DNA from: Bacillales bacterium UBA3620
GTDB lineage: Bacteria > Bacillota_I > Bacilli_A > RF39 > UBA660
Assembly: GCA_002375205.1 (NCBI GenBank)
Contig: DFLL01000040.1
Coordinates: forward strand, 1-58,383
Length of the DNA stretch: 58,383 nucleotides
Direction: 5' to 3'
In this document: in pieces, positions 11,951 through 48,550 of the stretch
How positions within the stretch are numbered: position 1 is the stretch's first letter
Layout of the letters: every line of letters begins with the position of its first letter
The notes under the pieces: model-generated
Seen by the model: the letters and a program-made list of their open reading frames with translations, nothing else
What the model was told of the DNA's origin: nothing
Databases searched by the model: none
Position numbers and translations under genes: made by a program

Positions 11951-12364
11951 TTATTGTAATTTAAAATATATTCCTTTTTTTATTAATAAATTTGATGATT
12001 TATGGTCTTTTGGTACATATCCCCTCTTCAATAGTTCTTCAATTACTATCATGTTATAATTAGCAGCAAACAAAATATTTGTTAGAATAATCAATAATAT
12101 TGTAGAAATAATACCCACTAATGGAGGTAATATAAAAAACATAATTAATATAGTCACAGCTATCTCAGTGAAAAAAATAACTGAGAACATTTTATAGTTT
12201 TTCTTTTTTAGCGGATAAAAGAACCCCATATAAATCATTTCTTTAATAAATCCATAGTCACATTCTGCTGTCGGATTATTGTCATCATATTTTAAATATA
12301 TTTTTTCCACAGCATCGCCTCTATTCTTCATTTTAATTATACTATATATTTGTTTATTTTTCAA
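11951..12364 (-). CDS. hypothetical membrane protein
   Basis: Two predicted TM helices (FSVIFFTEIAVTILIMFFILPPLVGIISTILLIILTNILF). Its start overlaps the end of the upstream gene. Confidence 0.5.
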   Translation of the reverse strand: MKNKQIYSIIKMKNRGDAVEKIYLKYDDNNPTAECDYGFIKEMIYMGFFYPLKKKNYKMFSVIFFTEIAVTILIMFFILPPLVGIISTILLIILTNILFAANYNMIVIEELLKRGYVPKDHKSSNLLIKKGIYFKLQ

Positions 12365-13023
12365 TTGTTTTGAAAATAAATTTCAATGGCATTAGAAATT
12401 AATGCTACTAGCCTATCCTGATATGCTGATTGTCTTAATAGATAATTATCGTTAGGATTAGATATGAATCCGGCTTCTATAAGAATTCCTGGATAGTTTA
12501 TATGTTTATACATATAATAACTATTATCTTTTTTTGTATTTCGAACATTTGACATATTATTCTTTAAATAATTAGTTATTATCTCTGCAATTATTTTATT
12601 TTGTTCATTTTTGTTTGTATAAAAAATTTGTAATCCTCTCCACGAAGGATTTGTTGTTGCATTTAAATGTATTGATATAAACATATCTGGTTTTATTTGA
12701 TTTATATATTTTGCTCGATTATATAAATCACTTTTTTTCCTTCCCGTAGTTGTTGTAGATAAATCATAATCATCTTCTCTTGTTTGATATACTATAGCCC
12801 CCCTTGATGTTAACTGTTTCTCTAATTTTTTAGATAAAATTAAATTTAAATCTTTTTCAACTATATTACTGTTTTTAGCACCTGTGTCTATTCCACCATG
12901 CCCGCTATCCAAACAAATTATTCTTCCCGTAAGACTATAACTATTTATCATTGCATTAACTTTTGAAAAACAAATTGTTAAAAGAAAAAAACATGTTAGT
13001 ATTAATAGTTTATATTTATTCAT
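12361..13023 (-). CDS. cwlD: N-acetylmuramoyl-L-alanine amidase (Amidase_3, CwlD-like)
   Basis: Motifs: DSGHGGIDTGA, ISIHLNA, ILIEAGFISNP. The size and signal anchor resemble the germination-specific CwlD. Confidence 0.75.
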   Translation of the reverse strand: MNKYKLLILTCFFLLTICFSKVNAMINSYSLTGRIICLDSGHGGIDTGAKNSNIVEKDLNLILSKKLEKQLTSRGAIVYQTREDDYDLSTTTTGRKKSDLYNRAKYINQIKPDMFISIHLNATTNPSWRGLQIFYTNKNEQNKIIAEIITNYLKNNMSNVRNTKKDNSYYMYKHINYPGILIEAGFISNPNDNYLLRQSAYQDRLVALISNAIEIYFQNN

Positions 13024-13052
13024 AATTCACCTATTAATATATATGTTTTTTT

Positions 13053-14705: not shown

Positions 14706-14816
14706 TTATTGCCTCCCTTTTATTTAATTTTATTATAGCATATTGCGATTTTTTTGTCATTATTTTTTTTGTATAAAGATATTGTCTATATACTATACTA
14801 TTAATGGGTGAAAAAA

Positions 14817-15401
14817 ATGAATCTAATTCCAACAGTTATTGAAAAAAACGAGATGGGCGAAAGAGCTTATGATATATATTCTAGGCTTCTAAAAGATAGA
14901 ATAATTATTTTAAATGGGGAAATAAATGATGCAACGGCAAATAGTATTGTAGCGCAATTGTTATATTTGGATAGCCTCAATAATGATGATATAAGTTTGT
15001 ATATAAATTCTCCTGGTGGAAGTATTACTTCTGGTATGGCCATATATGATACAATGAATTTTATTAAAAGTGATGTATCCACTATTTGTATTGGTATGGC
15101 TGCTTCTATGGCTGCATTTCTTTTAGCAACAGGAGAATGGGGCAAAAGATTTATTCTTCCTAATGCCGAAGTAATGATACATCAACCACTTGGTGGAGCT
15201 CAAGGACAGGCAACTGATATTAAAATTGCAGCAGAAAGAATTTTAAGGTTAAAAAGAAAATTAAATATGATATTATCTGATAGAACTAAAAAGGACGTTA
15301 ATACCATTAATTCTGACACCGAGAGAGATTATTTTATGGATTGCCACGAAGCCTTAGATTATGGAATTGTTGATAAGATATTAAAAAAGAGTTCAAATTG
15401 A
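14817..15401 (+). CDS. clpP: ATP-dependent Clp protease proteolytic subunit
   Basis: Motifs: [18 protein letters not shown], the catalytic GMAASMAA and MIHQPLGG. I prefer the ATG at 14817. Confidence 0.95.
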
Positions 15402-15410
15402 CCTCTTTTT

Positions 15411-16601
15411 TTATCTCAACTCACTATTACCCGTCTTTGTGTATCCCTCTACATAATTATCTGAAGACCACATTACATCTCTATTTTTAATAACATAACG
15501 ATAGTAAGCAATGGTTTCATAGTCACCTGATGGAGTAGAAGTTGTTATTTTATCAGATGCAAACTTAACATTTAATTTTAATGGTACATAATAAATATTA
15601 TTTTTATTACTATTGTATGATATAACATTTGAAGTATTAACTATAGTTATTTTTACATCAATATAAAATGTTCCTCTACGATAATATGGTGATAACTTAT
15701 AGGTGAAATTATTTGAGTTTAATGAATATTTTGAAATACTACTTGCAATACTATATTTTTCTTTATTCATTTCTGACTTATTTTCACTTATATAATTTTT
15801 TTCATCATTTTTATCAAAATATGCTACTTCTTTTAATTCAGAAAAATAATATTCTTTATTTGGAACCGTATTCAATTTTAAAGTATAAGTAATCTCATTA
15901 CCTTCTATAAAATCTGATGCTTTTATAACTCCTAATGTATAATATGTACTACTGGCAATTCCATAATATTCATATCTATTTTCTATATTATTTCCTGTCA
16001 CATTACCTTTATTCCATTTTGTATAACTAACTGTTTCTTTGACATACTCATAATATTTTGTTTTTTCATACGTGTCATTTGAATTATTACTTGATGAATT
16101 ATTATTGCTCTTTTCATTTAAATTATTATTATCTTTTTTGTTATTTTTTGAACTGCTTTTTTCATCTTTTTGTTTTTTTTCTTCCACACAATTTTTACAA
16201 TCTTTAAATAAAAATTTCTTTTTAATAGTATTTTCTTCTTGACCACATTTTAATGTCGTTGTTAATGTATAGTCACTTTTATTTCTAGTAATCTTTGAAA
16301 AGCTCTTTTTAATATCACAATTATTCTTTTTGTCTTCTGCAGATGATACTATTAAACCTTTGTCAATCATTTCTCCTAGTGTTACTTTTAGACTTTTCCC
16401 TTTTTCTAAAGGCAAATCAATTTCTTTATAATAGTTAGTTGCGACTGTTTCCATATTATTAATGTTATTTTTAAATGTGTCGGATAATTTTGTTCTTAAT
16501 GCTATTTTTGAAACTAACCAAATAATAATTAAAACAAAAACAAATATTATTATTATTTTAATAAATAGACCTAGCCAATTAATTTTTCTTTCTTTTTCCA
16601 T
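15411..16601 (-). CDS. membrane-anchored hypothetical protein with an N/S/K-rich linker
   Basis: It has a single N-terminal TM segment, a low-complexity stretch (KNNKKDNNNLNEKSNNNSSSNNSN) and a C-terminal beta-rich region. Confidence 0.5.
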   Translation of the reverse strand: MEKERKINWLGLFIKIIIIFVFVLIIIWLVSKIALRTKLSDTFKNNINNMETVATNYYKEIDLPLEKGKSLKVTLGEMIDKGLIVSSAEDKKNNCDIKKSFSKITRNKSDYTLTTTLKCGQEENTIKKKFLFKDCKNCVEEKKQKDEKSSSKNNKKDNNNLNEKSNNNSSSNNSNDTYEKTKYYEYVKETVSYTKWNKGNVTGNNIENRYEYYGIASSTYYTLGVIKASDFIEGNEITYTLKLNTVPNKEYYFSELKEVAYFDKNDEKNYISENKSEMNKEKYSIASSISKYSLNSNNFTYKLSPYYRRGTFYIDVKITIVNTSNVISYNSNKNNIYYVPLKLNVKFASDKITTSTPSGDYETIAYYRYVIKNRDVMWSSDNYVEGYTKTGNSELR

Positions 16602-16795
16602 AAAAACCTCCCTTTGGAGATAAATATTAACTGCCTTCTACAAGACAAATTATTAAGCAAAGAATTATTAATGAAAGTATAATTATTATATATTTTATCA
16701 ATCTTTCTATCTCTAATATAATGCTCATAATTTTCTTTTCTTCCGGCATAAAATATCTTCCCCTAAAATTGGCACTTATTATAGCATAGTAGTAA

Positions 16796-17059
16796 TTACT
16801 TGTCAAGTATTAAATAGACAATTGTGCATCCGTCATTATTATTATCTGTATGATATTTTAATACTTCTTTTCTTTTCTGTAATGTACTGTGCACTATTCT
16901 TTTTATCGTTCCAGTACCTTTCCCGTGTACTATTAATATTTTAGAATTTCCTAAAATTAAGTTTTCATTTAAAAAATCATTTGTAGCTACATAAGCACTC
17001 TGTGAATCAAATCCGTGTAGATCAATTCTGGGTAATCCCTTTAAAAATACATCTTCCAT
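16796..17059 (-). CDS. Smr-domain protein
   Basis: Smr motifs are present: IDLHG...VHGKGTGTIKRIVHSTL. Confidence 0.8.
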   Translation of the reverse strand: MEDVFLKGLPRIDLHGFDSQSAYVATNDFLNENLILGNSKILIVHGKGTGTIKRIVHSTLQKRKEVLKYHTDNNNDGCTIVYLILDK

Positions 17060-17065
17060 CTAAAT

Positions 17066-17094
17066 GTCGAGTAGATAATTCTCGACTCCACCTC
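17066..17094 (-). promoter_or_regulatory. SD (GAGGUGGA) followed directly by a 6-bp hairpin, placed between the SD and the AUG of the Smr gene
   Basis: The minus-strand RNA reads GAGGUGGA-GUCGAG-AAUUAUCUA-CUCGAC-AUUUAG-AUG. An in-frame TAG directly precedes the AUG, so the ORF cannot start further upstream. Confidence 0.55.
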
Positions 17095-17326
17095 TCTTTC
17101 TTGTGAAAGGTTTTGACTAATTACCCCTCACAGAATTACAGTGCTAACATCTTAGGAAAAAGCACCGTAGTTCGTTATTAATGAATTATAAATTGCATTA
17201 AATGTTTGTTACATATTTTTTATTATAGCATATAATTAATTTCTTTATCATTTATTTTTACAAAAAATTATTGTTAGAAATATGTAGCCATGATTCCAAC
17301 TTGTTTTTTTATTATTAATGATTAGA

Positions 17327-18565
17327 TTACTTTTCAATAGGTAATTTAATTTTTACAGTAGTTCCTTTATTTAATACTGAGTCATAAATAAGTGTTCCTC
17401 CATGGGCTTCAATTATTTCATTTGACAAAGCCACTCCCAAGCCAGTACCAGATGGCTTTGTTGTATAAAACATTTCTTTTACTTTTATTAGTGTATCACT
17501 AGACATTCCTATTCCATCATCTACTACAATTATTTCAATATAATTTGCTATTTTTTTTGTTTCTATTTTTATTGTCCCATTTTTTTCGATTGCTTCAGCA
17601 CTATTTTTTAAAATATTAACCAATACTTGTTTTAATCTGTCATAATCACCATTTATAAAGATGTTATTATTAGAATTATTATATAATATTTTTATTCCTC
17701 TAGTTTTACATATCATATTAAATGATTCATGTGTATCTTCTAACAAATCATTAATGCTTATTTTTTCTTTACTTATTTTTATTTTATTGAATTGAATAAA
17801 ATCTGTCATTATATTTAAACTTCTATCTATTTCTTCTTGCATTATTCTTATATATTTTTCTGATTTTTCCCTTTTATTTAAATCCATTATTTCTAAATAC
17901 CCTTTACATACCGCTAATGGATTTTTTATTTCATGTGTTAATTTAAACAATGCATTTTTCATTTTTTTATCTTTTTCTAATGATTTTATGGTAAAATTCA
18001 GTTTTTGTACCTTTTCTATTGTTTTAAATATATAGACTATAAAAAAAGTTATAGTATGATAAATAAATACTAATATTATTAATATAATAACATCATTTAT
18101 AGTTGCACCTGTTTCTAAAAAGAAATATTCAAAAGATAGAAAAAAGCCCTGAAGTACCGCTGTTGATAAAATAAAGTTATTTATCGATAATTTTTTTTTA
18201 TTTGCAAATAGATATAGTACGAAATATGAGAAATACTTTATGAAAGTTACTGCTAATAATAATTCTGAAATTTGATAGCAATAGATTATATTAATAAGAG
18301 ATAAAGAAAAGGCAAAAAAAGGTTTTTTCTTTATAAAAGATATAACAATTGGGATATTACAAAACAATAATATTTTATTGTTTGAAGTAATTATTCCAAA
18401 TCTCAGGCATAAATATAGTGATGTAAGTAATGCTAATTTTAATATTGAATCATTGCAGTTTTTTGAAATATTATCTTTGTATATGCTAAGTAAAAGATAT
18501 AACAATAATGGAAACGTTATAAATATTATATTTAATATGATATCTTTAAAAATTGTTATTTCCAT
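17327..18565 (-). CDS. orphan membrane sensor histidine kinase
   Basis: It has about six N-terminal TM helices, the HisKA H-box LTHEIKNPLA and the HATPase N/G boxes (NILKNSAEA, DDGIGM, GTGLGVA). No adjacent response regulator is present. Confidence 0.85.
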   Translation of the reverse strand: MEITIFKDIILNIIFITFPLLLYLLLSIYKDNISKNCNDSILKLALLTSLYLCLRFGIITSNNKILLFCNIPIVISFIKKKPFFAFSLSLINIIYCYQISELLLAVTFIKYFSYFVLYLFANKKKLSINNFILSTAVLQGFFLSFEYFFLETGATINDVIILIILVFIYHTITFFIVYIFKTIEKVQKLNFTIKSLEKDKKMKNALFKLTHEIKNPLAVCKGYLEIMDLNKREKSEKYIRIMQEEIDRSLNIMTDFIQFNKIKISKEKISINDLLEDTHESFNMICKTRGIKILYNNSNNNIFINGDYDRLKQVLVNILKNSAEAIEKNGTIKIETKKIANYIEIIVVDDGIGMSSDTLIKVKEMFYTTKPSGTGLGVALSNEIIEAHGGTLIYDSVLNKGTTVKIKLPIEK

Positions 18566-34602: not shown

Positions 34603-34931
34603 TTTTTATCACCTATATTTTTTATTAGCATTAACAATTCCTTTTCTATATCAAGATACGTTAATTCTAATAATCCTTTCCTAATAATTATAACATAATC
34701 ATAACTACTTTGCATACTATTTTTATTATTATCGATAATGTTTTTTATCCTTCTTTTTATTTTGTTTCTAATTACTGCTTTTCCAGTCTTCTTAGGGATT
34801 GATATTCCATATCTATTTTTATTATTGTTTTTACGATAATAGATACTGAAATTATTGCTCTTTATCTTTTTACCTTTATTTATTATTTCAGTATATTCCC
34901 TTGATGACTTTATGATATCTTCTTTCTTCAT
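34599..34931 (-). CDS. rnpA: ribonuclease P protein component
   Basis: It is basic, carries the KAVIRNKIKRRIK motif, and sits downstream of rpmH. Confidence 0.88.
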   Translation of the reverse strand: MKKEDIIKSSREYTEIINKGKKIKSNNFSIYYRKNNNKNRYGISIPKKTGKAVIRNKIKRRIKNIIDNNKNSMQSSYDYVIIIRKGLLELTYLDIEKELLMLIKNIGDKK

Positions 34932-34961
34932 ACTATAAAAAAAGAAAAAAAGAAAACAAAA

Positions 34962-35084
34962 TTATGCACATAATTTTTTTCTTTTTTTAGTTCTTCTATT
35001 CTTCAAAACATTACCTTTTACTCTTGCAAAGAAACCATGCTTTTTAGCTTTTTTTCTGTTATTAGGTTGATAAGTTCTTTTCAT
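34962..35084 (-). CDS. rpmH: 50S ribosomal protein L34, 40 aa (not in the ORF track)
   Basis: The translation is [47 protein letters not shown] lies 9 nt upstream. Confidence 0.88.
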
Positions 35085-35204
35085 AATTAAAACACCTCCA
35101 TGTCAAATGCTCTTTTATTATATAGTTTAATTTAGTTTCTGTCAATAATTTTCTAACTATTTTTTTAATTATACATTGTTCTAGGTATTGTAATCGCCAC
35201 TATT

Positions 35205-35255
35205 GTTGCACTTCATATTTAAATTAATCATAGTTGCACTTCATATTTAAATTAA
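35205..35255 (+). repeat. two exact 23-bp direct repeats GTTGCACTTCATATTTAAATTAA, 28 bp apart
   Basis: The copies are at 35205-35227 and 35233-35255. A degenerate third copy (CATATTTGACATTTTAAATTAC) overlaps the -35. Confidence 0.9.
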
Positions 35256-35260
35256 CATAT

Positions 35261-35289
35261 TTGACATTTTAAATTACATTTAATATAAT
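35261..35289 (+). promoter_or_regulatory. consensus sigma-A promoter: TTGACA, 17-nt spacer, TATAAT
   Basis: TTGACA is at 35261-35266 and TATAAT at 35284-35289, about 25 nt upstream of the ATG at 35314. Confidence 0.75.
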
Positions 35290-35313
35290 ATATGTTATTT
35301 GAGGAGAAATACT

Positions 35314-35964
35314 ATGAATAAAAATTTAGTTAATAAATATAAAAAAGAATTGACAGCATATACTTTTCCGGAAAGTAAATACTATATGCTTATGAATGAA
35401 AAGTCAAAAAAAAATGAGGTACTTAATGAAGTCTTTAATAGAAATGTCTTTGCAAACACTCCTAGTGACTATTATATGAACAATGGTAAAATTATATATT
35501 ATAATTCTTTAAAAGAGGTAAATAATAATATAATTGAGTGGATTGAAATTTTTAGCATGAAAGCTAGCCTTACAGATAATGAACGAAATATTTATTCATT
35601 ATATGTAGAAACGTTAAATAAAATAATTGATGAGATTAAAACTTATGCTAGACTATGTACATTAAAATATAATCTTAAATTTGCTATTGATGATACTATT
35701 AATTGTACTCTAGTTAAAACATATATTGGTATATTATGGGAGAGAAAACTTAAAATTAATAATAAGCTCAGAATAATAATAGAAAACGAATCATCTCTTT
35801 GCTATACTGATTATATAGATGAACTATTGAAAATACGTGATATCTACAGTACCAAACTACTTTGTATGGAAGATGAATGTGAAGAAATATATGATGAATT
35901 TAGAAATATAGTTAGAGAAATACTAAACGTTAAAAAAATAGTTAAAAAGAAAGGAAATACATAA
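35314..35964 (+). CDS. hypothetical protein, 216 aa, family not recognised
   Basis: The ATG at 35314 follows GAGGAG. It lies directly downstream of the consensus promoter at 35261-35289. Confidence 0.55.
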   Translation: MNKNLVNKYKKELTAYTFPESKYYMLMNEKSKKNEVLNEVFNRNVFANTPSDYYMNNGKIIYYNSLKEVNNNIIEWIEIFSMKASLTDNERNIYSLYVETLNKIIDEIKTYARLCTLKYNLKFAIDDTINCTLVKTYIGILWERKLKINNKLRIIIENESSLCYTDYIDELLKIRDIYSTKLLCMEDECEEIYDEFRNIVREILNVKKIVKKKGNT

Positions 35965-35968
35965 AAAA

Positions 35969-36337
35969 ATGGAAATCGAGCAAAATATATTAAAGGAAAT
36001 TGCAATTGAATATTTTGATATTGGTGATGAAGAAAAATTTAATAATGACTGGAAAAACTTTATTTACTGCTACGAAAGAATGAGAAATTGTTCATGTGTT
36101 AAAGCTAAAGATTTATATAGTTTTATTGATGCATTATATCTTGTTGCTTCTGATATAGCTAGCGACGATTTTTTTAAAACAACTGTGGATTTGTATGGAA
36201 ATAGATTCTATAATTATGCGGAAAAACATAAATCATTAGAAGATATGGTTGATGATGCTTTATATAGAATATATGATGAAGATGCTATTCCTAGTTTATC
36301 AGAGCAATATATTCGCATTAAGAAGCTTGAAAGATAG
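35969..36337 (+). CDS. hypothetical acidic protein, 122 aa
   Basis: It starts 4 nt after the upstream stop and is followed by a terminator-like hairpin with a T-run at about 36349-36390. Confidence 0.5.
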   Translation: MEIEQNILKEIAIEYFDIGDEEKFNNDWKNFIYCYERMRNCSCVKAKDLYSFIDALYLVASDIASDDFFKTTVDLYGNRFYNYAEKHKSLEDMVDDALYRIYDEDAIPSLSEQYIRIKKLER

Positions 36338-36513
36338 TACAGCTAAAATAAGAGACTACTGAAATTAGACTCTTATTTTTTTTAAAGACTTATGTTTCAA
36401 TAAATATAAGTAACTTAGTAGGATAGAAAAAAGAAGAAAAATCTCCAAAATACTATTTCATTTTTTTTCTTTTTTTGATAGAATTATATATGAGGAAATA
36501 AAGGTGACAGTAT

Positions 36514-39503: not shown

Positions 39504-40367
39504 ATGAATGAATTACAAGTTATTAGTAATCAAGAAATTGAGAAAATGATTTTTGAAGTAAGAGGTAAGTTTGTTATGTTAGATAGTGATATAGCAAATC
39601 TTTATCATGTAGAAACAAAGAGAGTAAATGAAGCTGTTAAAAATAATTTAACAAAGTTCCCTGAGCGTTATTCCTTTAAACTTACTGATGAAGAATCAAA
39701 AAATCTTTTGGTCGAAAATTTCGACCAAAAAAAAGAAACTCGAGGAGGCAGATATAAAAATCCAAGAGTGTTTACAGAAGAAGGTGCTTTAATGCTCAGT
39801 ACTGTACTTAAAAGTAAATAAGCTATTAATACTAGTATTGCTATTACTGATGCTTTTGTTGCTATGAAGAAGTATATCTCTTCTAATCTAATAGAACAAA
39901 GATTTATTAATAATATGGTATTAGAACATGATAATGATATTAAACTACTTAAAGAATCTTTTTCAAAATTTGATAGTATGAGTAATGAGATATTTTATGA
40001 AGGACAGATATATGATGCTTATTCATTATTATTGGATATAATAAATAGTTCTAAAGAAAGTATTATAATTATCGATAATTTTGCTAATAAGAAATTATTT
40101 GATTTACTATCTAAAACTAATAAGGAAATAACTGTTTATAGTAAAAATATCGATGAAGATCTAATTAATAAATATAAGAAGCAATATAATAACGTTACTT
40201 TAATACATAATGATAGTTACCATGATAGATTTATTATTATTGATAATAAAACATTATATCACTGTGGATCTTCATTTAAAGACTTGGGTACTAAATGTTT
40301 TTGTATTAGTAAAATTGAAAATCAAGAATTAATTAGAGATATGTTATCTATTATAAAAAGCAAATAA
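39504..40367 (+). pseudogene. ORF6N-family paralog copy 1, interrupted by an in-frame TAA at 39819-39821
   Basis: The two track ORFs (39504-39821 and 39864-40367) are collinear and in frame with the intact copies 2 and 3. The sequence reads ...VLKSK*AINTSIAITDAFVAMKKY... Confidence 0.7.
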
Positions 40368-40385
40368 TAATTGGAGGTATTTGGT

Positions 40386-41255
40386 ATGAATGAGTTACAA
40401 GTAATTGATAATATTAAAATTGAAGATATGATTTATGAGATAAGAGGTAAGTTTGTTATGTTAGATAGTGATATAGCAAACCTTTATCACGTTGAAACAA
40501 AAAGAGTAAATGAGGCTGTAAAAAATAACCCCAAAAAATTTCCAGAACAGTATTCTTTTATATTATCTAGTGATGAATATAAATCTCTAAGGTCGAAAAT
40601 TTCGACCTTAGAAGTAAAAAATACTGGTAAAGGGCATTATAGAAAATATTTACCAAGGGTTTTTACTGAAGAAGGATGTTTAATGCTTGGAACTGTTCTG
40701 AAAAGTGATGTTGCAGTGAATACCACATTACTTGTAATTGAAGCTTTTGTCGCTATGAAGAAGTATATCTCTTCTAATCTAATAGAACAAAGATTTATTA
40801 ATAATATGGTATTAGAACACAATGAACGAATCAGATTATTGGAAGATAATTTTAATAAAAAATCTTTTAGTAATGAAATATTCTATGAAGGACAAATATA
40901 TGATGCTTATTCATTATTATTGGATATAATAAATAGTTCTAAAGAAAGTATTATAATTATCGATAATTTTGCTAATAAGAAATTATTTGATTTACTATCT
41001 AAAACTAATAAGAAAGTAACAGTATATAGTAAAAATATTGATGAAGAACTAATTAATAAATATATGAAACAGTATAATAACGTTACTTTAATACATAATG
41101 ATAGTTACCATGATAGATTTATTATTATTGATAATAAAACATTATATCACTGTGGATCTTCATTTAAAGACTTGGGTACTAAATGTTTTTGTATTAGTAA
41201 GATAGAAAATCAAGAACTAATTAGAGATATGTTATCTATTATAAAAAGCAAATAA
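40386..41255 (+). CDS. ORF6N-domain protein (KilA-N-related DNA-binding N-terminus) with a C-terminal HDRFIIID...GSSFKDLG module, copy 2
   Basis: ORF6N-like motifs are present: VMLDSDIANLY...KRVNEAVKNN..FP and LPRVFTEEG. The ATG at 40386 follows GGAGG. Confidence 0.75.
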   Translation: MNELQVIDNIKIEDMIYEIRGKFVMLDSDIANLYHVETKRVNEAVKNNPKKFPEQYSFILSSDEYKSLRSKISTLEVKNTGKGHYRKYLPRVFTEEGCLMLGTVLKSDVAVNTTLLVIEAFVAMKKYISSNLIEQRFINNMVLEHNERIRLLEDNFNKKSFSNEIFYEGQIYDAYSLLLDIINSSKESIIIIDNFANKKLFDLLSKTNKKVTVYSKNIDEELINKYMKQYNNVTLIHNDSYHDRFIIIDNKTLYHCGSSFKDLGTKCFCISKIENQELIRDMLSIIKSK

Positions 41256-41273
41256 TAATTGGAGGTATTTGGT

Positions 41274-42149
41274 ATGAATGAGTTACAGGTAATTGACAAC
41301 ATTAAAATTGAAGATATGATTTATGAGGTAAGAGGGAAGCAAGTTATGCTAGATTCTGATTTGGCAAAAATTTATCATTGTAAGAATGGCACAAAAGAGA
41401 TTAACCAAGCAGTTAAAAGAAATATAAATAGATTCCCTGAAGAATTTTGCTTTCAACTCTCAGAAGACGAATACTCACTTTTGAAGTCACAATTTGTGAC
41501 TTCAAAAAATAAAGGTCGCGGTGGAGTTAGAAAACTACCATATGTTTTTACCGAACATGGAGTGATTATGCTTTCTAGTGTAATAAAAAGTGATGTTGCT
41601 GCTAAAACTAATGTAGCAATAATTAATGCTTTTATAAAAATGAAAAAGTATGTTTCTTCTAATTTATTGGAACAAAGGTTTATTAACAATATGGTATTAG
41701 AACATGATAATGATATTAAACTACTTAAAGAATCTTTTTCAAAATTTGATAGTATGAGTAATGAGATATTTTATGAAGGACAAATATATGATGCTTATTC
41801 ATTATTATTAGATATATTAAATAGTTCTAAAGAAAGTATTATAATTATCGATAATTTTGCTAATAAAAAGTTATTTGATTTACTATCTAAAACTAATAAG
41901 GAAGTAACTGTTTATAGTAAAAATATTGATGAAGAACTAATTAATAAATATATGAAACAGTATAATAACGTTACTTTAATACATAATGATAGTTACCATG
42001 ATAGATTTATTATTATCGATAAAAAAGTATTATATCACTGTGGATCATCATTTAAGGATCTAGGTACTAAATGCTTTTGTATTAGTAAGATAGAAAATCA
42101 AGAACTAATTAGAGATATGTTATGTAGTATTAGTCTAAATAACAGGTAA
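41274..42149 (+). CDS. ORF6N-domain protein with a C-terminal HDRFIIID...GSSFKDLG module, copy 3
   Basis: It matches the canonical ORF6N pattern: VMLDSDLAKIY, INQAVKRNINRFPEEFCFQLSEDEY, LKSQFVTS, LPYVFTEHGVIMLSSV. Confidence 0.8.
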   Translation: MNELQVIDNIKIEDMIYEVRGKQVMLDSDLAKIYHCKNGTKEINQAVKRNINRFPEEFCFQLSEDEYSLLKSQFVTSKNKGRGGVRKLPYVFTEHGVIMLSSVIKSDVAAKTNVAIINAFIKMKKYVSSNLLEQRFINNMVLEHDNDIKLLKESFSKFDSMSNEIFYEGQIYDAYSLLLDILNSSKESIIIIDNFANKKLFDLLSKTNKEVTVYSKNIDEELINKYMKQYNNVTLIHNDSYHDRFIIIDKKVLYHCGSSFKDLGTKCFCISKIENQELIRDMLCSISLNNR

Positions 42150-42195: not shown

Positions 42196-42438
42196 TTATT
42201 CTTTAAAAAAGTCATCTATTTTCTTATTTAATATTAGAGATAATTTATATACTAATGTTAGTGAACAGTTTTTTCTACTGTCACCTGGTGACTCTAATCT
42301 TTTTAAATAATCAGGACTAACATCTAGAATTTCTGCTAAATCCATTAATTTAAGTCCTTGTTCTTTTCGATATTTTTTAATATTTTTACATATTATTTCT
42401 CTATAATTATGATTAAATCCATCTATTTCTTTTATCAT
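42196..42438 (-). CDS. XRE-family helix-turn-helix transcriptional regulator, 80 aa
   Basis: It has a Cro/C1-type HTH (IKKYRKEQGLKLMDLAEILDVSPDYLKRLE) and lies 3 nt downstream of the preceding ORF. Confidence 0.8.
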   Translation of the reverse strand: MIKEIDGFNHNYREIICKNIKKYRKEQGLKLMDLAEILDVSPDYLKRLESPGDSRKNCSLTLVYKLSLILNKKIDDFFKE

Positions 42439-42441
42439 TTA

Positions 42442-43044
42442 TTATTCCTTTATTTCTTCCACAATACTAGCAGTCCCCTCAAATAAATACTCATATATAG
42501 GATTATCAGTATTACTTTGATTCCAATACAATATAGCCTTTTCTTTCTTTTTATTTAAAGAAATACTCTCTCTTAATATGTAATTAGCATCACCTTTAAA
42601 TATTTTACCAGTTAATTCTAATTTAAATATTCGATATTCTTTTTTATTAGTTCTATTAAATATATCTATCCAGGTAGATAATTCTTCTAGTGATTTAGTA
42701 ACAAATAAACATTTTAATCTAGAAGGTAAATCTATATTAATTTCTTTTCTGACTTCTTCAATAATTAATTCTCTTGTTATAAAAGCATCATTACTTATTG
42801 TCTTTAATACAGTATTTAAATCATTAATAGAATTAAAATTTAACTTTCTATTATTAAACATATTTAATAATATTTGATTAGCATCTAAATTATCATTATT
42901 CTTATATTCACTATCATAGATACTATAATAAAAATAATTATATTTATCAGTAGTAATTATATCTCCAATATTTAATTCATTATTAGTACATATATGATAA
43001 TAATATTCTTTATTTACTTCTTTCAAAGTACTACCTTCTTTCAA
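42442..43044 (-). CDS. hypothetical protein, ~195-200 aa, start uncertain
   Basis: It is an intact ORF with TTG starts only. The TTG at 43026 follows GAAGGT, whereas the TTG at 43044 has no SD. No family was recognised. Confidence 0.45.
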   Translation of the reverse strand: MKEGSTLKEVNKEYYYHICTNNELNIGDIITTDKYNYFYYSIYDSEYKNNDNLDANQILLNMFNNRKLNFNSINDLNTVLKTISNDAFITRELIIEEVRKEINIDLPSRLKCLFVTKSLEELSTWIDIFNRTNKKEYRIFKLELTGKIFKGDANYILRESISLNKKKEKAILYWNQSNTDNPIYEYLFEGTASIVEEIKE

Positions 43045-43128
43045 TAGTTATTATAGCAAAATAATATATAAATAACTAGATTTTTTTAGGTATATTTGCT
43101 ACAATTAAGATAGATAGGTGATTGATAA

Positions 43129-45765
43129 ATGGAAACTATACTAAAAAATAATGCTGAACTAATAAGTGATACTCAAATTTATGAAAATTTAAGAAGAACT
43201 TCTAAAAAGGGATTAATATCATTAATTAATAAAAATCAATTAATCGACTTAGCACTAAAATATTTTGGTGTTTATGATGATAATCATACTTTAATGGGAT
43301 ATACTTGTCCTTATAGTGGAAGACTTATTACTGATTTTTCAGAGTTAGAATTAGAGCATATAATACCAATATCATCTAATGGTGGTACTGCTTTATTTAA
43401 TTGTATTCCAGCATCAAAAGAAGTTAACGGGTTCAGAGAAAAAAGTAACAAAAATCTAATTGAATGGTGGGCAAATAGTAAATATTGGGATAGTGATGCT
43501 CCAAAAAGATTAGAAAAATTAGTTAATTATATTCTAGATGGATATAAAATTGTTTTTAAAGAATATACAGCAGAAGAAGTGGAAACATCATATTTATCTA
43601 TGAACATCAATGGTAATATTCTAAAAGATGATGATGATTTAACAATTGGTAAATTGAAAAAGAAGAAAATTGATAAAGAAAGAAAAATTCAATCCTATCT
43701 AGGATTCTTAAATCAATGTATTGCTCAATTGAATAATAACAATATTGATACAAATCAAATAAGTGACAAAATAGAAAGTCTTGAAGCAAACAATATTTTT
43801 CAGGATATTGATAGATATACATTATTCCAAAATATTTTACAAAAATGTATTAAAGAGAGAATTAATGAAAATGACAGAAGTTATTTAAGATATTCATTAA
43901 ACCTTGACATAATGAAACTAATGAAATCTATATCTTCTAGTAATAAGGGTGAAATTTATAATGAAATAAGCAATAGACTTACAAATATAGAAACCTTATT
44001 AAATAAAAATAATCTTAGTTTAATCGACTATTTTGAAAGTTTAACCGATATCTCTGACAATAATATTATTTATAAAAACATTTCAGAGATTAGTGATGAA
44101 AATATAAATATATTTATAAAAAAAATAAAAGTTGTTTTTTCATCAAAAGTAAATATTTTTATTGAAATGCTTAATAATGGTAATAGCAATGTATTAATGT
44201 ATAGAAATAATGAAACTTTTAATGGGCATCCTAATATTCCTATTGGAACTTTTTGGAGTCATAATCGCACCTTTATATTATCCAAGCTTAATGATAGTGA
44301 TATTGTTGCAAAGCAATTAATTAATGAGTGGAATTTTAGTAATGATTTGGAAGCAAAAACTAAGGTTTTTATTGAAATGCTTAATAATGGTAATAGCAAT
44401 ATATTAATGAAAAGAAATAATGAAACTTTTAATAGACATCCTAATATTCCTATTGGAAAGTTTTGGGAAACTAATCGTGACTTCATAGTGTCTAAACTTA
44501 AAGATAGTGATACTGTTGCAAAGAAAATAATTAGCGAGTGGAATTTTAGTAATGATTTGGAAGCAAAAACTAAGGTTTTTATTGAAATGCTTAATAATGG
44601 TAATAGCAATATATTAATGAAAGGAAATAATGAAACTTTTAATAGACATCCTAATATTCCTATTGGACAGTTTTGGAGTTCTAATCGCGAGTTCATAGTG
44701 TCCAAACTTATAGATAGTGATACTGTTGCAAAGAAATTAATTAATGAGTGGAACTTTAGTAATGATTTGGAAGCAAAAACTAAGGTTTTTATTGAAATGC
44801 TTAATGATGGTAATAGCAATATATTAATGCAAAGAAATAATGAAACTTTTAATGGGCATCCTAATATTCCTATTGGATCTTTTTGGAGTAATAATCGTAA
44901 TTTTATAGTGTCTGAACTTAAAGATAGTGATACTGTTGCAAAACAATTAATTAATGAATGGAATTTTAGTAATGATTTAGAAGCAAAAGCTAAGGTTTTT
45001 ATTGAAATGCTTAATGATGGTAATAGCAATATATTAATACAAAAAAACAATGAAACTTTTAAAGGACATCCTAATATTCCTATTGGACAGTTTTGGAGTA
45101 CTAATCGCGACTTCATAGTGTCTAAACTTAAAGATAGTGATACTGTTGCAAAACAATTAATTAATGAATGGAATTTTAGTAATGATTTAGAAGCAAAAAC
45201 TAAGGTTTTTATTGAAATGCTTAATGATGGTAATAGCAATATATTAATACAAAAAAACAATGAAACTTTTAATGGGCATCCTAATATTCCTATTGGATTC
45301 TTTTGGAGTAATAATCGCCCCTTTATATTATCCAAGCTTAATGATAGTGATATTGTTGCAAAGCAATTAATTAATGAGTGGAATTTTAGTAATGATTTGG
45401 AAGCAAAAACTAAGGTTTTTATTGAAATGCTTAATAATGGTAATAGCAATATATTAATGAAAGGAAATAATGAAACTTTTAATAGACATCCTAATATTCC
45501 TATTGGACAGTTTTGGAGAACTAATCGTGATTTTATATTATCCAAACTTTTTATTGTATTAAAAGATAATGCTTTTCATGATAAGGCACGTCAAACTGTA
45601 TTAAATTATTATAAAGTAAACAGTATTGAAGAATATTATCAAAAGCAAGAAGCCAAAAAGAAAAAATCATCTGAGGTAAAAAAGTTAAGAAAAATAAAAG
45701 CAGAACTAGAAAATTATCAAGATTCATTAGAAATTGATCAAAAGGATAATAGAAAGAGAGCATAA
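43129..45765 (+). CDS. HNH endonuclease-domain protein fused to a 6.7x tandem 70-aa repeat array (HA-domain-like)
   Basis: The HNH-like motif is CPYSG...ELEHIIPISSNGGTALFNCIPASKEVN. The repeats have an exact 210-bp period. Confidence 0.8.
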   Translation: METILKNNAELISDTQIYENLRRTSKKGLISLINKNQLIDLALKYFGVYDDNHTLMGYTCPYSGRLITDFSELELEHIIPISSNGGTALFNCIPASKEVNGFREKSNKNLIEWWANSKYWDSDAPKRLEKLVNYILDGYKIVFKEYTAEEVETSYLSMNINGNILKDDDDLTIGKLKKKKIDKERKIQSYLGFLNQCIAQLNNNNIDTNQISDKIESLEANNIFQDIDRYTLFQNILQKCIKERINENDRSYLRYSLNLDIMKLMKSISSSNKGEIYNEISNRLTNIETLLNKNNLSLIDYFESLTDISDNNIIYKNISEISDENINIFIKKIKVVFSSKVNIFIEMLNNGNSNVLMYRNNETFNGHPNIPIGTFWSHNRTFILSKLNDSDIVAKQLINEWNFSNDLEAKTKVFIEMLNNGNSNILMKRNNETFNRHPNIPIGKFWETNRDFIVSKLKDSDTVAKKIISEWNFSNDLEAKTKVFIEMLNNGNSNILMKGNNETFNRHPNIPIGQFWSSNREFIVSKLIDSDTVAKKLINEWNFSNDLEAKTKVFIEMLNDGNSNILMQRNNETFNGHPNIPIGSFWSNNRNFIVSELKDSDTVAKQLINEWNFSNDLEAKAKVFIEMLNDGNSNILIQKNNETFKGHPNIPIGQFWSTNRDFIVSKLKDSDTVAKQLINEWNFSNDLEAKTKVFIEMLNDGNSNILIQKNNETFNGHPNIPIGFFWSNNRPFILSKLNDSDIVAKQLINEWNFSNDLEAKTKVFIEMLNNGNSNILMKGNNETFNRHPNIPIGQFWRTNRDFILSKLFIVLKDNAFHDKARQTVLNYYKVNSIEEYYQKQEAKKKKSSEVKKLRKIKAELENYQDSLEIDQKDNRKRA
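44146..45549 (+). repeat. in-frame 210-bp tandem repeat, 6 full copies plus 1 partial
   Basis: Unit starts are at 44146, 44356, 44566, 44776, 44986, 45196 and 45406. Each encodes K(T/A)KVFIEMLN(N/D)GNSNIL...IPIGxFWxxNRxF...EWNFSNDLEA. Confidence 0.95.
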
Positions 45766-45767
45766 TT

Positions 45768-45968
45768 ATGGAGAATAATATTTATAATTTAGATGATTAT
45801 TATAAAGCATTAAAATTACAGGATGATTATGAAAAAGATGTTATTGATGAAGATGAAATATCTTTAGAAGAATATGATGAATTAATTAAACTTTATAAAA
45901 TACAGATAAGAAAACTTGCTGATGATATTAATTATAGGATTAAATTATTACAAAGAGGTGATAAGTAA
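45768..45968 (+). CDS. small acidic coiled-coil protein, 66 aa
   Basis: It starts 2 nt after the upstream stop, and its stop overlaps the next start (TAATG). Confidence 0.5.
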   Translation: MENNIYNLDDYYKALKLQDDYEKDVIDEDEISLEEYDELIKLYKIQIRKLADDINYRIKLLQRGDK

Positions 45969-46420
45969 TGTTAGAAAGTGTTTATTATTATTTAAAAGAA
46001 TTTGGATTTAATGATAAAGAAATTGATTTTTTTGAAGATGAAAATGAGGATATGTTTTCTACTAATAACATTGAAATAGAAAAGAATATTAATTTTTTAT
46101 TTGAAAAAGGATTAGAACATGAAGAAGTACTTGATGTTATTAGAAAAAATCCTGATATGCTTACTGTTAAAAATAATAGATTGGAAGCTTATGACAAGAT
46201 ATTTAATAATGAATTAGATATGGATAATGATATGATTAAAAAATTAATTATATCTTACCCTGATACTTATGTAGAAAGCCCTATTGATTTACAAAATATT
46301 ATTAATTATTTAAAAGAAAAAAAATATGATAAAGAATATATTAAAAATTTAATAATTGATAATCCTAAAATTATTAGTATGGATTTATCTGAATTTGAAA
46401 AAGAAATAATACTTAAATAG
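45968..46420 (+). CDS. helical-repeat protein resembling mTERF repeats, 150 aa
   Basis: Four ~30-aa units follow the pattern (F/Y)L.E.G(F/L)...I...I...P.(M/I)(L/I): YLKEFGFNDKEI, FLFEKGLEHEEVLDVIRKNPDMLTV, MIKKLIISYPDTYV, YLKEKKYDKEYIKNLIIDNPKIISM. Confidence 0.5.
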   Translation: MLESVYYYLKEFGFNDKEIDFFEDENEDMFSTNNIEIEKNINFLFEKGLEHEEVLDVIRKNPDMLTVKNNRLEAYDKIFNNELDMDNDMIKKLIISYPDTYVESPIDLQNIINYLKEKKYDKEYIKNLIIDNPKIISMDLSEFEKEIILK

Positions 46421-46428
46421 GAGTTATT

Positions 46429-47421
46429 ATGAAAAGAGAATTATTTGAGAAAAGAAAAGAAGAATTTAAGAAAATTGTTTTAGAAGAAGGTAATTTGCCT
46501 AAAGTTGGTATGCGTAAATTTTCTGATAGAGATGACGCTAGAATATGGTTTAACAAGATATATAATTCAAGTTTGTTTAAAGATTTTATTGGTGAAATAA
46601 ATAATATTTTAAGTAATTATGGATTAATGGTATTAGATGATAAAGCTAAAGAGGAAGAATTTCTTGAGACAATTAATATAATTGGAAGAATACCTTTTAA
46701 AGGTGAATTATATTTTTCTGACAATGATGAAATGTATATGTGGTATTTTAATCATAAAGTTAAAAATCCTTCTTTTGAAACTATAGTACACAATAATTTA
46801 AAAGAATATCAAGATTTTGATTTAGCTACTGAATGGTCTAATATAAAAAAAGAGTTTATCTATACAATTAAATTAATAAAAAGAATACCAGAACATGGAG
46901 AGTGTTTTACACAAAATGGTATTGATATTAGGGTAATATATGATAAACTTCAAACTTTTGATCCGCAGTTTATAGAAAAATTATTGTTACATCTTCAAAC
47001 ATATAATAAAAAGGGTTTATCTTCTGAAGATAGAGAAAAAGAATTTTTAGAATGTGTATCAAAATTAGGTTATATACCATTTCTTCAAGAAGCAAGATTC
47101 TCTGATAAAACAGATATGTTTACTTGGTATAATAAATATAGGTTAAAGATAGTTAATTTTGAATTAGAAGTACAAAGAAGAATAAAAGTAGATAAGCCAA
47201 TTAGAAAAATTAATATATATTTGGTTCCAAATTTTAAAACTAGAGGTGGAAAGTTTTATACAGTATGTTCTAATGAAGGTGAAATTTTAGATTTATCTGG
47301 AATATTCACATATGAAGAAATGAAAGAAAAGGATAATACTTTTGCTAAAAGGGGCGGAATTATCTTAAAACAAGATGAAGAATTAGATACTGTAAATATT
47401 GTGAAAGGAAAAATTAAATAA
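46429..47421 (+). CDS. protein with four degenerate helicase-associated (HA)-like repeats, 330 aa
   Basis: Four repeated units are visible: FKKIVLEEGNLPKVGMRKFSDRDDARIWFNKIY, FLETINIIGRIPFKGELYFSDNDEMYMWYFNHK, FIYTIKLIKRIPEHGECF...IRVIYDKL, FLECVSKLGYIPFLQEARFSDKTDMFTWYNKYR. Confidence 0.55.
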   Translation: MKRELFEKRKEEFKKIVLEEGNLPKVGMRKFSDRDDARIWFNKIYNSSLFKDFIGEINNILSNYGLMVLDDKAKEEEFLETINIIGRIPFKGELYFSDNDEMYMWYFNHKVKNPSFETIVHNNLKEYQDFDLATEWSNIKKEFIYTIKLIKRIPEHGECFTQNGIDIRVIYDKLQTFDPQFIEKLLLHLQTYNKKGLSSEDREKEFLECVSKLGYIPFLQEARFSDKTDMFTWYNKYRLKIVNFELEVQRRIKVDKPIRKINIYLVPNFKTRGGKFYTVCSNEGEILDLSGIFTYEEMKEKDNTFAKRGGIILKQDEELDTVNIVKGKIK

Positions 47422-47699
47422 TGAAAATAAATGCATTAGATAATAATGGTAAATCTAAAGAATATGATGTTATTCTTACTTACTATAGCGATGAATATAA
47501 TAAGAACTATATTGTTTATACTGATGATGTCTATAATGACAAAGAGGAACTAAATATATATATTAATGAATATACTGATAATCCGGAAGTGATTTCTAAA
47601 CCTATTCAAGATAAAGCTGAATATACAAAAGTAAAGACTGCTGTTAATGAATTACTTTTAATTATGAAAAATGAAAGTGATAAATTGGAAACAAATTAA
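47421..47699 (+). CDS. DUF1292-like small acidic protein
   Basis: The pattern (D.NG...EY.V...Y..E....Y.VYTDD) resembles DUF1292. Its start overlaps the upstream stop (TAATG). Confidence 0.5.
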   Translation: MKINALDNNGKSKEYDVILTYYSDEYNKNYIVYTDDVYNDKEELNIYINEYTDNPEVISKPIQDKAEYTKVKTAVNELLLIMKNESDKLETN

Positions 47700-47720
47700 T
47701 AAAGGAATGGTATTTACATC

Positions 47721-48353
47721 ATGAAAATAGTAAATAAAGTGAATAGAAGTAATATAAATAGCCTTCTAGTTAACGAAGGTCAGAGTAAAATGAGTGAATC
47801 TATGATAGAATTTGCTAAGTCTATACCTGAAATAAATAAAGTAGAGGATTTAAAAGTATTAGATAGATTGTTTTATGAATATTTTACAAGAGATAAGAAT
47901 ACTAAAAAATTTGAATCTATTGCAGAACAAATTTTTGATAGAAAAACTTTTTCTGGATGTTCTGATATAGGATTAGCTATATCTCCACTACTTAGACATA
48001 AGGGGATACCTACCGTATATGTTGAAAGTGCTAGTATAGAATGGATAAAAGATATACAAGAAGATAATGAAAATAAAGAACTAATGAAAGGACATATCTT
48101 TTTAGAAATATACTTAAATAACAAATGGTACTTATATGATCCTACTTTTCATTTGGTATATGATAATTATGATTATAATAATTTATGCCTACCAAGAAAT
48201 TATTATGTATTTGCTAAAGCAATGAATTCATTTGATTTAGATGTACATAGTGTTAAAGATGAAAAAGAATTAGCTACTAATGTACTTAAAGATTTTGATA
48301 TTTCAACTTACACTAATCCAAATTATAAAGAATATAATTTGAAAAAAAAATAA
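47721..48353 (+). CDS. transglutaminase-like cysteine-protease-fold protein
   Basis: A candidate Cys-His-Asp triad sits in the canonical context: FSGCSDIGLA...LLRHKGIPT, KGHIFLEIYLNNKWYLYDPT. Confidence 0.6.
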   Translation: MKIVNKVNRSNINSLLVNEGQSKMSESMIEFAKSIPEINKVEDLKVLDRLFYEYFTRDKNTKKFESIAEQIFDRKTFSGCSDIGLAISPLLRHKGIPTVYVESASIEWIKDIQEDNENKELMKGHIFLEIYLNNKWYLYDPTFHLVYDNYDYNNLCLPRNYYVFAKAMNSFDLDVHSVKDEKELATNVLKDFDISTYTNPNYKEYNLKKK

Positions 48354-48426
48354 ATAAGATGGTATCATACTTATCTAAATAAATGAATTAATCTTTAAAG
48401 TATGAATATTTTACATACTAGAGTTT

Positions 48427-48460
48427 AAAAGAAGATATTGATGAAAAAATATCTTCTTTT
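48427..48460 (+). terminator. terminator-like hairpin after the transglutaminase-like gene
   Basis: A 12-bp AT-rich stem (AAAAGAAGATAT / ATATCTTCTTTT) with a 10-nt loop. Confidence 0.5.
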
Positions 48461-48550
48461 AATGTTAAAATAAATAAGAAAAAAAGAGATGGTTTTATTA
48501 TTTACTTTTAGAGTAATTTATTATACAATTATCTTAAGGAAAGGGATATT

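Follow-up and report, generated by a model that had tools for sequence, protein, structure and literature searches.

In sensor-and-nuclease restriction enzymes, among them the type IV or modification-dependent enzymes and the END-type PLD enzymes, a nuclease is linked to a distinct domain that senses DNA and determines the specificity (PMC12191111). HA domains were reported to bind DNA and to serve as specificity domains fused to nucleases in defence enzymes, including some END-type PLD nucleases (PMC12191111). The TALE, BurrH/Bat, PPR and PUF repeat proteins have near-identical tandem repeats with a few fixed hypervariable positions and a copy number driven by recombination, and in TALENs such a repeat array is joined to a nuclease by engineering. 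In this work, a stretch of 58,383 nucleotides (nt) from Bacillales bacterium UBA3620 (contig DFLL01000040.1; hereafter the window) was analysed, in which five adjacent genes, g1 to g5, resemble both kinds of system. The g1 gene encodes a predicted HNH nuclease with a C-terminal array of near-identical repeats, and g2 to g5 encode a small acidic protein, an mTERF-family protein, an HA-like repeat protein and an acidic DUF1292-family protein, respectively. We hypothesize that g1-g5 are a horizontally mobile, restriction-like conflict module against invading DNA, and we give this predicted function a probability of roughly 0.4.

In the proposed mechanism, g1 would be the effector, a Cas9-type (HNH_4) endonuclease whose C-terminal part is an HA-type repeat array, and the array would be the element that recognizes the target. 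The gain, loss and conversion of repeats, together with the variable residues, could change the specificity quickly in the course of an arms race. The g3 protein would be the obligate partner of g1 and, with g2, would most likely bind it, so that on self DNA the nuclease stays inactive or is correctly targeted, in the manner of an immunity protein or regulator. The g4 and g5 proteins would be a conserved, optional accessory pair, probably aiding the binding of DNA or of another target.

By comparison with the type IV and END-type enzymes, the nuclease of the module is of the HNH_4 type and not of the PLD or PD-(D/E)xK type, the sensor comprises 2-10 near-identical hypervariable repeats, and there are four partner genes (g2-g5), one of which encodes an mTERF protein. 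The likeness to the HA-fused END-type nucleases lies in a g1 relative with six HA domains (L036, see below), and the module genes have a defence-island-like setting. The individual parts, namely HNH_4, mTERF, HA-type repeats and DUF1292, are known. Neither PADLOC v2 nor the literature that could be searched describes their combination, a hypervariable array joined to a nuclease or an mTERF partner of bacterial origin, and no publication was found that connects mTERF, HA arrays or DUF1292 with a module of this kind. If g1-g5 are a defence or conflict system, a set of components comprising an HNH nuclease, a hypervariable HA-type array, an mTERF and a DUF1292 protein has not been seen before. 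The source organisms are uncultured gut and rumen Firmicutes of low G+C content, which are poorly sampled for immunity genes, and the module gives a functional context to the orphan domains HA and DUF1292.

The conserved five-gene unit

The original prediction, made from the sequence alone, described a six-gene operon at this position. The six closely packed open reading frames (ORFs) of the plus strand, their coordinates and their junctions were all confirmed from the sequence, and the features of the locus are as follows.

43045-43128, plus strand: intergenic leader of the module, with the DUF2441/helix-turn-helix (HTH) gene pair running the opposite way (direct sequence reading)
43116-43121, plus strand: ribosome-binding site of g1 (AGGTGA), inside the leader
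43129-45765, plus strand: g1, predicted HNH nuclease of 878 amino acids (aa) (ORF, HNH_4 match, 41 homologues)
45768-45968, plus strand: g2, acidic helical protein of 66 aa (ORF; homologues directly after g1)
45968-46420, plus strand: g3, mTERF-family protein of 150 aa (Pfam mTERF, match to PDB 3m66)
46429-47421, plus strand: g4, HA-like repeat protein of 330 aa (ORF, 174 homologues, AlphaFold2 model, Foldseek)
47421-47699, plus strand: g5, acidic DUF1292-family protein of 92 aa (Pfam DUF1292)
47721-48353, plus strand: g6, transglutaminase-like protein of 210 aa (sub-threshold Transglut_core)
48425-48462, plus strand: AT-rich hairpin with a 15-bp stem (sequence and RNAfold, -15.5 kcal/mol)

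The g1 and g2 genes are separated by 2 nt, g2 and g3 overlap in the sequence TAATG, g3 and g4 are 8 nt apart, g4 and g5 again overlap in TAATG, and 21 nt lie between g5 and g6. The second overlap couples g4 and g5 translationally, and a clear purine-rich ribosome-binding site lies ahead of every gene but g6. The hairpin that had been proposed after the last gene is present and, lying ahead of dnaB, is probably a transcription terminator; it was not detected by a G+C-based terminator scan. A promoter scan gave nothing above the expectation from shuffled sequences, and the promoter position is inferred only. An Rfam scan of the whole window gave no RNA family, and a non-coding RNA partner was not found.

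The conservation of these genes was followed through 47 related loci (given below by their L numbers), which were fetched by exact-protein look-ups, a scan of species genomes and a metagenome scan, and whose ORFs were labelled with jackhmmer profiles of the window genes. The g3 gene adjoins g1 in 30 of the 31 testable loci, and the single exception, L033, is a decayed copy. A g2 gene directly after g1 is present in 18 of the 21 loci with enough flanking sequence, and g4 together with g5 in 14 of the 21 testable loci. The order g1-g2-g3-g4-g5 is found in the window, L011 and L023, and the order g3-g1-g2-g4-g5 in L005, L014-L017 and L028-L042; in L003, a g4-like gene and g5 are located upstream of g1, and minimal forms of the module contain g1, g3 and sometimes g2. 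Spacing is tight in all module loci, and g5 always comes after g4 with the same overlap kept. Several intact modules lack g2 (L004, L007, L012, L018 and L036); its fusion to the C-terminus of g1 was considered for the loci without it, and no such fusion was found. Because of this conservation across loci, a chance adjacency of the module genes is excluded. The original prediction had left it to be checked whether the HNH-repeat, mTERF-like and HA-repeat genes co-occur elsewhere; together with the DUF1292-like gene, they do so in many genomes and contexts.

The block is mobile. By comparing L005 with L028, the g3-to-g5 block was found to be their only common accessory DNA (77% identity over 4.7 kb), and it is placed differently in the two loci relative to a penicillin-binding protein (PBP) gene. 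The g6 gene does not belong to the unit. In a sister strain of the window (L046), g1 is 83% identical and the synteny from parAB to dnaB-dnaI-dnaE is the same, but g5 leads directly to dnaB; compared with L046, positions 47703-48344 of the window, which correspond to g6, are a clean 642-bp single-gene insertion between flanks that are otherwise about 91% identical. Among the labelled loci, g6 and the DUF2441 gene occur in the window only. The g6 gene was therefore rejected as a module member, since it is missing from every other locus and cleanly inserted relative to L046, and it is a strain-specific passenger that is probably co-transcribed with the module. As to its resemblance to transglutaminases, part of the original prediction, Cys, His and Asp motifs are visible by eye only (GCSD, GHIFLE and YDPT), and the Transglut_core score (PF01841) remains below the cut-off (18.8 against 23 bits, E = 2e-3); no PDB sequence was matched. 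The conserved, transferable unit is thus g1-g5 (window 43129-47699), five genes rather than the six proposed, because g1-g5 co-occur across loci, the block alone is shared by L005 and L028, and g6 is an insertion.

The module is distributed patchily across genomes. Only 10 loci were obtained from the 185,579 species genomes, and their hosts are exclusively metagenome-assembled genomes (MAGs) of uncultured gut or rumen Bacilli, Erysipelotrichaceae, Clostridia or 'Firmicutes'; a further scan of metagenomes gave 26 loci. Two loci each are found in the MAGs uncultured Bacillales SRR12081298_bin.74 and uncultured Clostridia SRR8387717_bin.32. The copy in L033 (9977-14081) is a decayed type-B copy in which g1, g4 and g5 are fragmented and g3 is undetectable, so the module can be lost by pseudogenisation.

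It could also be supposed that g1-g5 form a lineage-specific housekeeping complex near the replication origin, acting in transcription termination, fork handling or repair by analogy with the mTERFs of organelles. The window and its sister strains have the module between parAB and dnaB-dnaI-dnaE, near the GC-skew switch, g3 is a true mTERF relative, and the DUF1292 proteins found elsewhere are housekeeping genes of Firmicutes. However, 10 loci among all the species genomes scanned are few for such a function, the chromosomal position varies by lineage, and the module is also carried by integrative elements. Furthermore, two MAGs have two loci each, the L033 copy is pseudogenised, the arrays are hypervariable, and a conventional DNA-binding mTERF would not be as acidic as g3. 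A housekeeping role is the least probable of the explanations considered here.

The predicted g1 nuclease and its repeat array

From its N-terminus to its C-terminus, the g1 protein comprises an HNH domain, a helical middle region that is conserved (about residues 124-333), seven repeats of 70 aa and a basic tail, so the HNH domain and the 70-aa repeat array of the original prediction were both recovered. Two parts of the gene are considered below.

43300-43467, plus strand: HNH (beta-beta-alpha-metal) catalytic core of g1, residues 58-113 (CPYSG motif, E76-H77, N91 and N100)
44128-45600, plus strand: array of seven 70-aa repeats, g1 residues 334-824 (Tandem Repeats Finder, hidden Markov model domain matches)

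The match of g1 to HNH_4 (PF13395) is borderline, as its 22.0 bits equal the gathering cut-off of 22, and the L004 homologue reaches 27.1 bits. In a collection of 5.8 billion proteins, g1 has 41 homologues; they come without exception from metagenomes or MAGs, and no functional name is attached to any of them. In alignments of 27 and 35 g1 homologues, the residues C60, P61, Y62, G64, H77, N91 and N100 are invariant. PHROG families of the endonuclease VII/HNH type match the HNH core, and only the core, with E values of about 1e-4, and the Gme HNH nickase (PDB 4h9d) was matched in a sequence profile search with E = 0.06. In the AlphaFold2 (AF2) model of g1 (predicted local distance difference test, pLDDT, 77), strands 73-77 and 92-96 are followed by a helix at 110-115. 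A whole-chain Foldseek search of the PDB gave local matches only, to the HNH domain of Cas9 (probability 0.84, E = 0.26) and to the Gme HNH nickase; these nucleases share the beta-beta-alpha-metal core with g1 and are its best local fold matches. The spacing of His77, Asn91 and Asn100 (14 and 9 residues) is that of H840, N854 and N863 in SpCas9. In contrast to Cas9, g1 has no RuvC domain, guide-RNA apparatus or CRISPR array, and Glu stands in place of Asp before the catalytic His. Judged from these residues, the HNH active site of g1 is intact, and the protein is predicted to act as a nuclease.

The tandem repeat of g1 has a period of 210 nt and 6.6 copies with a 90% match (Tandem Repeats Finder), which correspond to the seven 70-aa units. 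Each repeat is modelled by AF2 as a helix, a short helix, a beta-hairpin and two further helices. A 428-aa ORF on the minus strand within the repeats (44259-45545) is a by-product of their periodicity and not a gene. The repeat count is 3, 4, 5, 6 or 7 among g1 homologues that are at least 81% identical, and it ranges from 2 to 9 within the type-B element family. According to the entropy within the window protein, the hypervariable positions of the repeat are 24-26, 41, 44, 45 and 48 (motif IGxFWxxNRxF). In the AF2 model, they flank the beta-hairpin and start the following helix, clustering around the invariant Phe-Trp. The ratio of nonsynonymous to synonymous differences per site (pN/pS, Nei-Gojobori) is 1.75 at these seven codons, which were picked after inspection of the data, and 0.19 at the other 63. 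Two independent checks were then run. In the distant type-B lineage, which has 105-aa repeats and for which the positions were mapped a priori, the ratio is 1.27 compared with 0.54. In alleles 99% identical to the window g1, all of the 8-10 amino-acid differences are located inside the array; one block represents the conversion of repeat 4 to a repeat-5-like sequence, and four independent single substitutions (K444Q, S518T, G499R and G779R) all fall on hypervariable positions. The seven residues per repeat thus appear to be under diversifying selection, and a recognition surface in an arms race is expected to look so.

The array is the most interesting part of the module, because its scaffold is fixed and its variable positions and repeat number change even between alleles that are 99% identical. 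This pattern is the evolutionary signature of programmable recognition modules, and the array could supply a new binding scaffold that is naturally fused to a nuclease, as opposed to the engineered fusion in TALENs. In comparison with TALE, the repeats of the g1 family are longer (70-105 aa against 33-36 aa) and have a helix/beta-hairpin/helix fold instead of a helical hairpin, there is no sequence or fold relationship, and each g1 repeat has seven variable positions where a TALE repeat has two. In a far-reaching, 'TALEN-like' version of our hypothesis, the array would be derived from HA domains, read DNA modularly through about seven hypervariable residues per repeat and direct the HNH domain, with the mTERF protein as dedicated regulator. 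We consider this version unlikely. If true, it would represent a categorically new protein-DNA recognition code, reprogrammed by repeat shuffling and point changes.

The array position of the g1 family is probably an HA-type slot, because two g1 homologues carry HA domains. The L036 homologue has the same HNH domain and middle part, with six canonical HA domains (PF03457, E = 2e-92) in the position of the array, and the L026 homologue passes the HA threshold with E = 2e-8. The 70-aa unit of the window may be an HA domain that has diverged strongly, or it may stand in for one functionally. In hhalign comparisons of the g1 repeat with the g4 repeat, the L036 HA repeats and the L004-type repeats, all probabilities were below 5%, the segmentation of the repeats being poor in one of them; PDB profile searches with the g1 repeat and with g4 retrieved no HA chain.

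The original prediction assigned four HA-like repeats to g4, and the predicted fold supports this by matching probable HA-array proteins, whereas Pfam gives no match. The four HA-like helical repeats take up about residues 1-256 of the protein, and residues 257-330 form a beta domain at the C-terminus. Its 174 homologues are all about 330 aa long and about 58% identical, so that g4 is far more conserved than g1. In the AF2 model (pLDDT 85), a repeat consists of a helix, a short beta-bridged loop and two helices, and the repeat consensus is R..EF...I..L..IP...E..FSDG.DMR.WY. A Foldseek search of BFVD with the model matched giant-virus helicase or type III res-subunit proteins (E = 7.7e-5, 2.3e-4, 6.1e-4 and 1.7e-3) and a phage protein annotated 'Helicase associated domain' (E = 1.5e-2). 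Going by their names, the giant-virus proteins probably align with g4 through HA arrays. The g4 repeats have no match to PF03457 up to E = 10, g4 itself matches no PDB sequence, and a whole-chain Foldseek search of the PDB gave nothing significant. In L036, a second gene of the island also combines a nuclease with an HA array: at 6631-8307, 400 nt upstream of the HNH-HA-array g1 homologue, it encodes a protein of 559 aa, in which six canonical HA domains (PF03457, E = 1e-104) surround a central homing-endonuclease/Vsr-like core.

DNA is the favoured ligand of the array. A defence system of the same kind could instead use the array to sense a protein of the invader, as sensors with tetratricopeptide repeats (TPR) or leucine-rich repeats (LRR) do within STAND/Avs-type systems, and then unleash the HNH domain. 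In favour of this, the arrays lack a basic charge, many g1 homologues have an acidic overall composition, protein-binding repeats also typically show hypervariable patches on a rigid scaffold, and one metagenomic protein (P0194, see below) fuses a g3-like domain to BspA-type LRRs. Against protein sensing, canonical HA domains, which are described as DNA-binding (PMC12191111), fill the array slot in L036, and profile searches found no NTPase or switch domain in the module. Protein sensing is, like the 'TALEN-like' version, improbable. Electrostatics were tried as a test of DNA binding and discarded as uninformative, the charge of the array ranging from -3 to +2.5 per repeat.

Among homing endonucleases, HNH enzymes that carry modular DNA-binding extensions are common. 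The g1 gene could accordingly belong to a selfish homing-type cassette, in which an HNH nuclease with a long modular array cuts a chromosomal site and spreads its own locus. The block is located at different chromosomal sites, the HA-array protein next to g1 in L036 has a homing-endonuclease-like core, and the weak PHROG matches of g1 fit such enzymes. A conserved cassette of five genes would be atypical of homing, however, and the module lies outside introns, inteins and conserved target genes. Moreover, its synteny in the window lineage is stable, and fast change of the recognition residues would ruin the specificity for a homing site, which makes homing quite unlikely.

The acidic partner proteins

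A paper of 2026 states that mTERFs are absent from prokaryotes (PMC12977773). The mTERF-like character proposed for g3 is well founded, as the protein scores 40.9 bits with Pfam mTERF (PF02536) against a cut-off of 23.1 (E = 1.6e-10). It also matches the structure of human MTERF3 (3m66) with E = 1.9e-8, as well as MTERF1 and MTERF4 chains. When 1.84 billion representatives were searched with the g3 profile, 58 proteins (at 50% identity) were found below E = 1e-10, and the profile retrieves plant mTERFs of Turnera, Rhamnella and Diphasiastrum with E values of 1e-14 to 1e-5. By sequence, g3 is a genuine relative of the human (MTERF1/3/4) and plant mTERFs. It differs from these eukaryotic proteins in its length of about 150 aa, which covers only part of the 314-position model, in being bacterial and strongly acidic, and in being paired with an HNH-repeat nuclease. 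The g3 protein documents a compact bacterial branch of mTERFs, and it gives a starting point for tracing where the family came from and for a possible role other than nucleic-acid binding. A bacterial mTERF family, mostly of about 150 aa, thus exists. In the protein P0194 (413 aa, ENA metagenome), residues 1-145 form a g3-like mTERF domain (E = 1e-34) that is joined to an LRR region of the BspA type, which hints that the bacterial mTERF module can couple to other repeat sensors.

The net charge of g3 is -16 with an isoelectric point of 4.4, the family median being -5.4. The g2 protein, predicted as a 66-aa acidic coiled coil, is indeed acidic (net charge -7.5) and helical; its gene starts 2 nt after g1, and it has no family match in the profile libraries or PHROGs. 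The g5 protein was likewise assigned correctly as an acidic DUF1292-like protein: its PF06949 score of 26.8 bits exceeds the cut-off of 24, the match extends over positions 2-74 of the 75 in the model, and its matches to the NCBIfam PRK13678 models are below the cut-offs. Its net charge is -8.5, and -8 to -14 in most homologues. The acidity of g2, g3 and g5 holds across most homologues, and g4 is about neutral. The original prediction spoke of nucleic-acid-type helical repeat proteins. The mTERF relationship of g3 agrees with this description; the net charge of g3, the acidity of g2 and g5 and the roughly neutral arrays do not. Binding of nucleic acids by g2, g3 and g5 is doubtful, because g3 is strongly acidic and the other two are acidic as well. 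The acidity of g2 and g3 would better suit immunity or regulator proteins that bind a nuclease than DNA binders.

In colicin-type HNH toxins, the toxin gene is adjoined by a small immunity-protein gene. By analogy, g1-g5 could be a toxin-immunity (addiction) cassette, with g1 as the toxin and g2 and/or g3 as the immunity protein, which stabilises its carrier island or element and has no anti-phage role. The small acidic g2 right after g1 resembles such HNH/immunity pairs as well as type II toxin-antitoxin systems, the acidic g3 is always adjacent to g1 (upstream of it in type-B loci) as a second partner, and the module resides in mobile islands, including a 10.5-kb integrative element beside AbiE, which is itself a toxin-antitoxin system. 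On the other hand, addiction would require no conserved g4-g5 pair and no array of 2-10 repeats that is under diversifying selection, the five intact modules named above have no g2, and the module of the window lineage is not on a recognizable mobile element. Compared with colicins and type II systems, the module also has no secretion or translocation domains, its nuclease is large and bears a repeat array, the g4-g5 genes are extra, and no sequence similarity to immunity-protein (Im) or antitoxin families was found. Addiction is thus conceivable, though not the explanation that we prefer; if g1-g5 instead form a restriction-like module against invading DNA, g2 and g3 may well inhibit the nuclease in the same way.

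Genomic neighbourhood and the window

The neighbours of the module are recurrently mobile or defence-like in independent contexts, which makes it a resident of defence islands and agrees with the accessory placement originally proposed. In the type-B loci, it is part of a 10.5-kb element that is bounded by AbiEi/AbiEii on one side and by a large serine recombinase on the opposite side. In L004, TnpV and a serine recombinase come after the module. ORF6N genes of the PADLOC candidate family PDC-S05 stand beside it in the window, L028 and L011, and L023 has PDC-S01 (DUF4143 ATPase) and PDC-S04/SoFic (Fic) in this position. A KilA-N gene and an HTH gene are located near the module in L003. A role in defence is consistent with these surroundings. 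The original prediction would have failed if the block were ordinary prophage cargo. The module is not within a recognizable prophage, and tblastn searches of GenBank phages, PLSDB plasmids and IMG/VR gave no module relatives.

Several points weigh against the restriction-like, DNA-directed module that we favour. The 70-aa repeat of the window g1 is not detectably an HA domain, with no match to Pfam PF03457 up to E = 10. The g1 arrays are about neutral and the N-terminal part is acidic, so electrostatics do not support DNA binding. The module of the window lineage resides stably in the chromosome, close to the replication origin, and is not visibly mobile. Many of the type-B loci represent one element family, so that about ten contexts, and not 47, are truly independent. 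The neighbouring 'PDC' families are candidate defence genes only. Finally, g1-g4 and g6 have no match in PADLOC-DB v2.0.0 at E ≤ 0.1, and g5 has a marginal CARF_TM match (E = 6e-3); homology does not support defence, and, as had been expected, no module gene is assigned to a known system.

The type-B element was delimited in L005 at 7436-17983 and is also found in L006, L016, L017 and L042. It splits the gene of a PASTA-domain PBP at about codons 420-433, and its cargo includes AbiEi/AbiEii, the module, four small ORFs and the large serine recombinase. It is reminiscent of the intervening elements that are excised from sporulation genes by recombinases.

In the window, the three tandem ORF6N genes (39504-42149; match to PDC-S05 at E = 6e-93) precede the module. 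The triplication originally described is real in its three copies, but the first is broken into two ORFs (39504-39821 and 39864-40367). The sister L046 has a single copy, and L028 has three, at 4.3 kb from its module. The two genes between ORF6N and the leader had been called an XRE regulator pair, whereas only one of them encodes an HTH protein.

42196-42438, minus strand: HTH_3 protein of 80 aa (Pfam)
42442-43044, minus strand: DUF2441 protein of 200 aa (E = 7e-40)

At 8726-9900 of L046, the HTH gene is kept and its partner is an unrelated 300-aa protein without a family match. The divergent HTH/DUF2441 cassette looks like a swappable slot for toxin-antitoxin or Abi-type genes.

The window itself is part of a Firmicutes chromosome with a G+C content of 25%. 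The minus-strand genes rnpA, yidC, jag, mnmE, mnmG and rsmG stop at a GC-skew switch near 35 kb, after which the order is parA, parB, a CPBP protease gene, the ORF6N genes, the module, dnaB, dnaI and dnaE. The dnaB and dnaI genes were correctly recognized on the right side and encode the Firmicutes helicase loaders DnaB (DnaB_2 type) and DnaI. Both the GC and the AT skew change sign near 35 kb (window about 34900-36500), between rnpA on the minus strand and parA-parB on the plus strand. No dnaA-dnaN pair is present at the switch; two unannotated ORFs (35299-35964 and 35969-36337) are located there instead, and the sister strain has asnA at the corresponding position.

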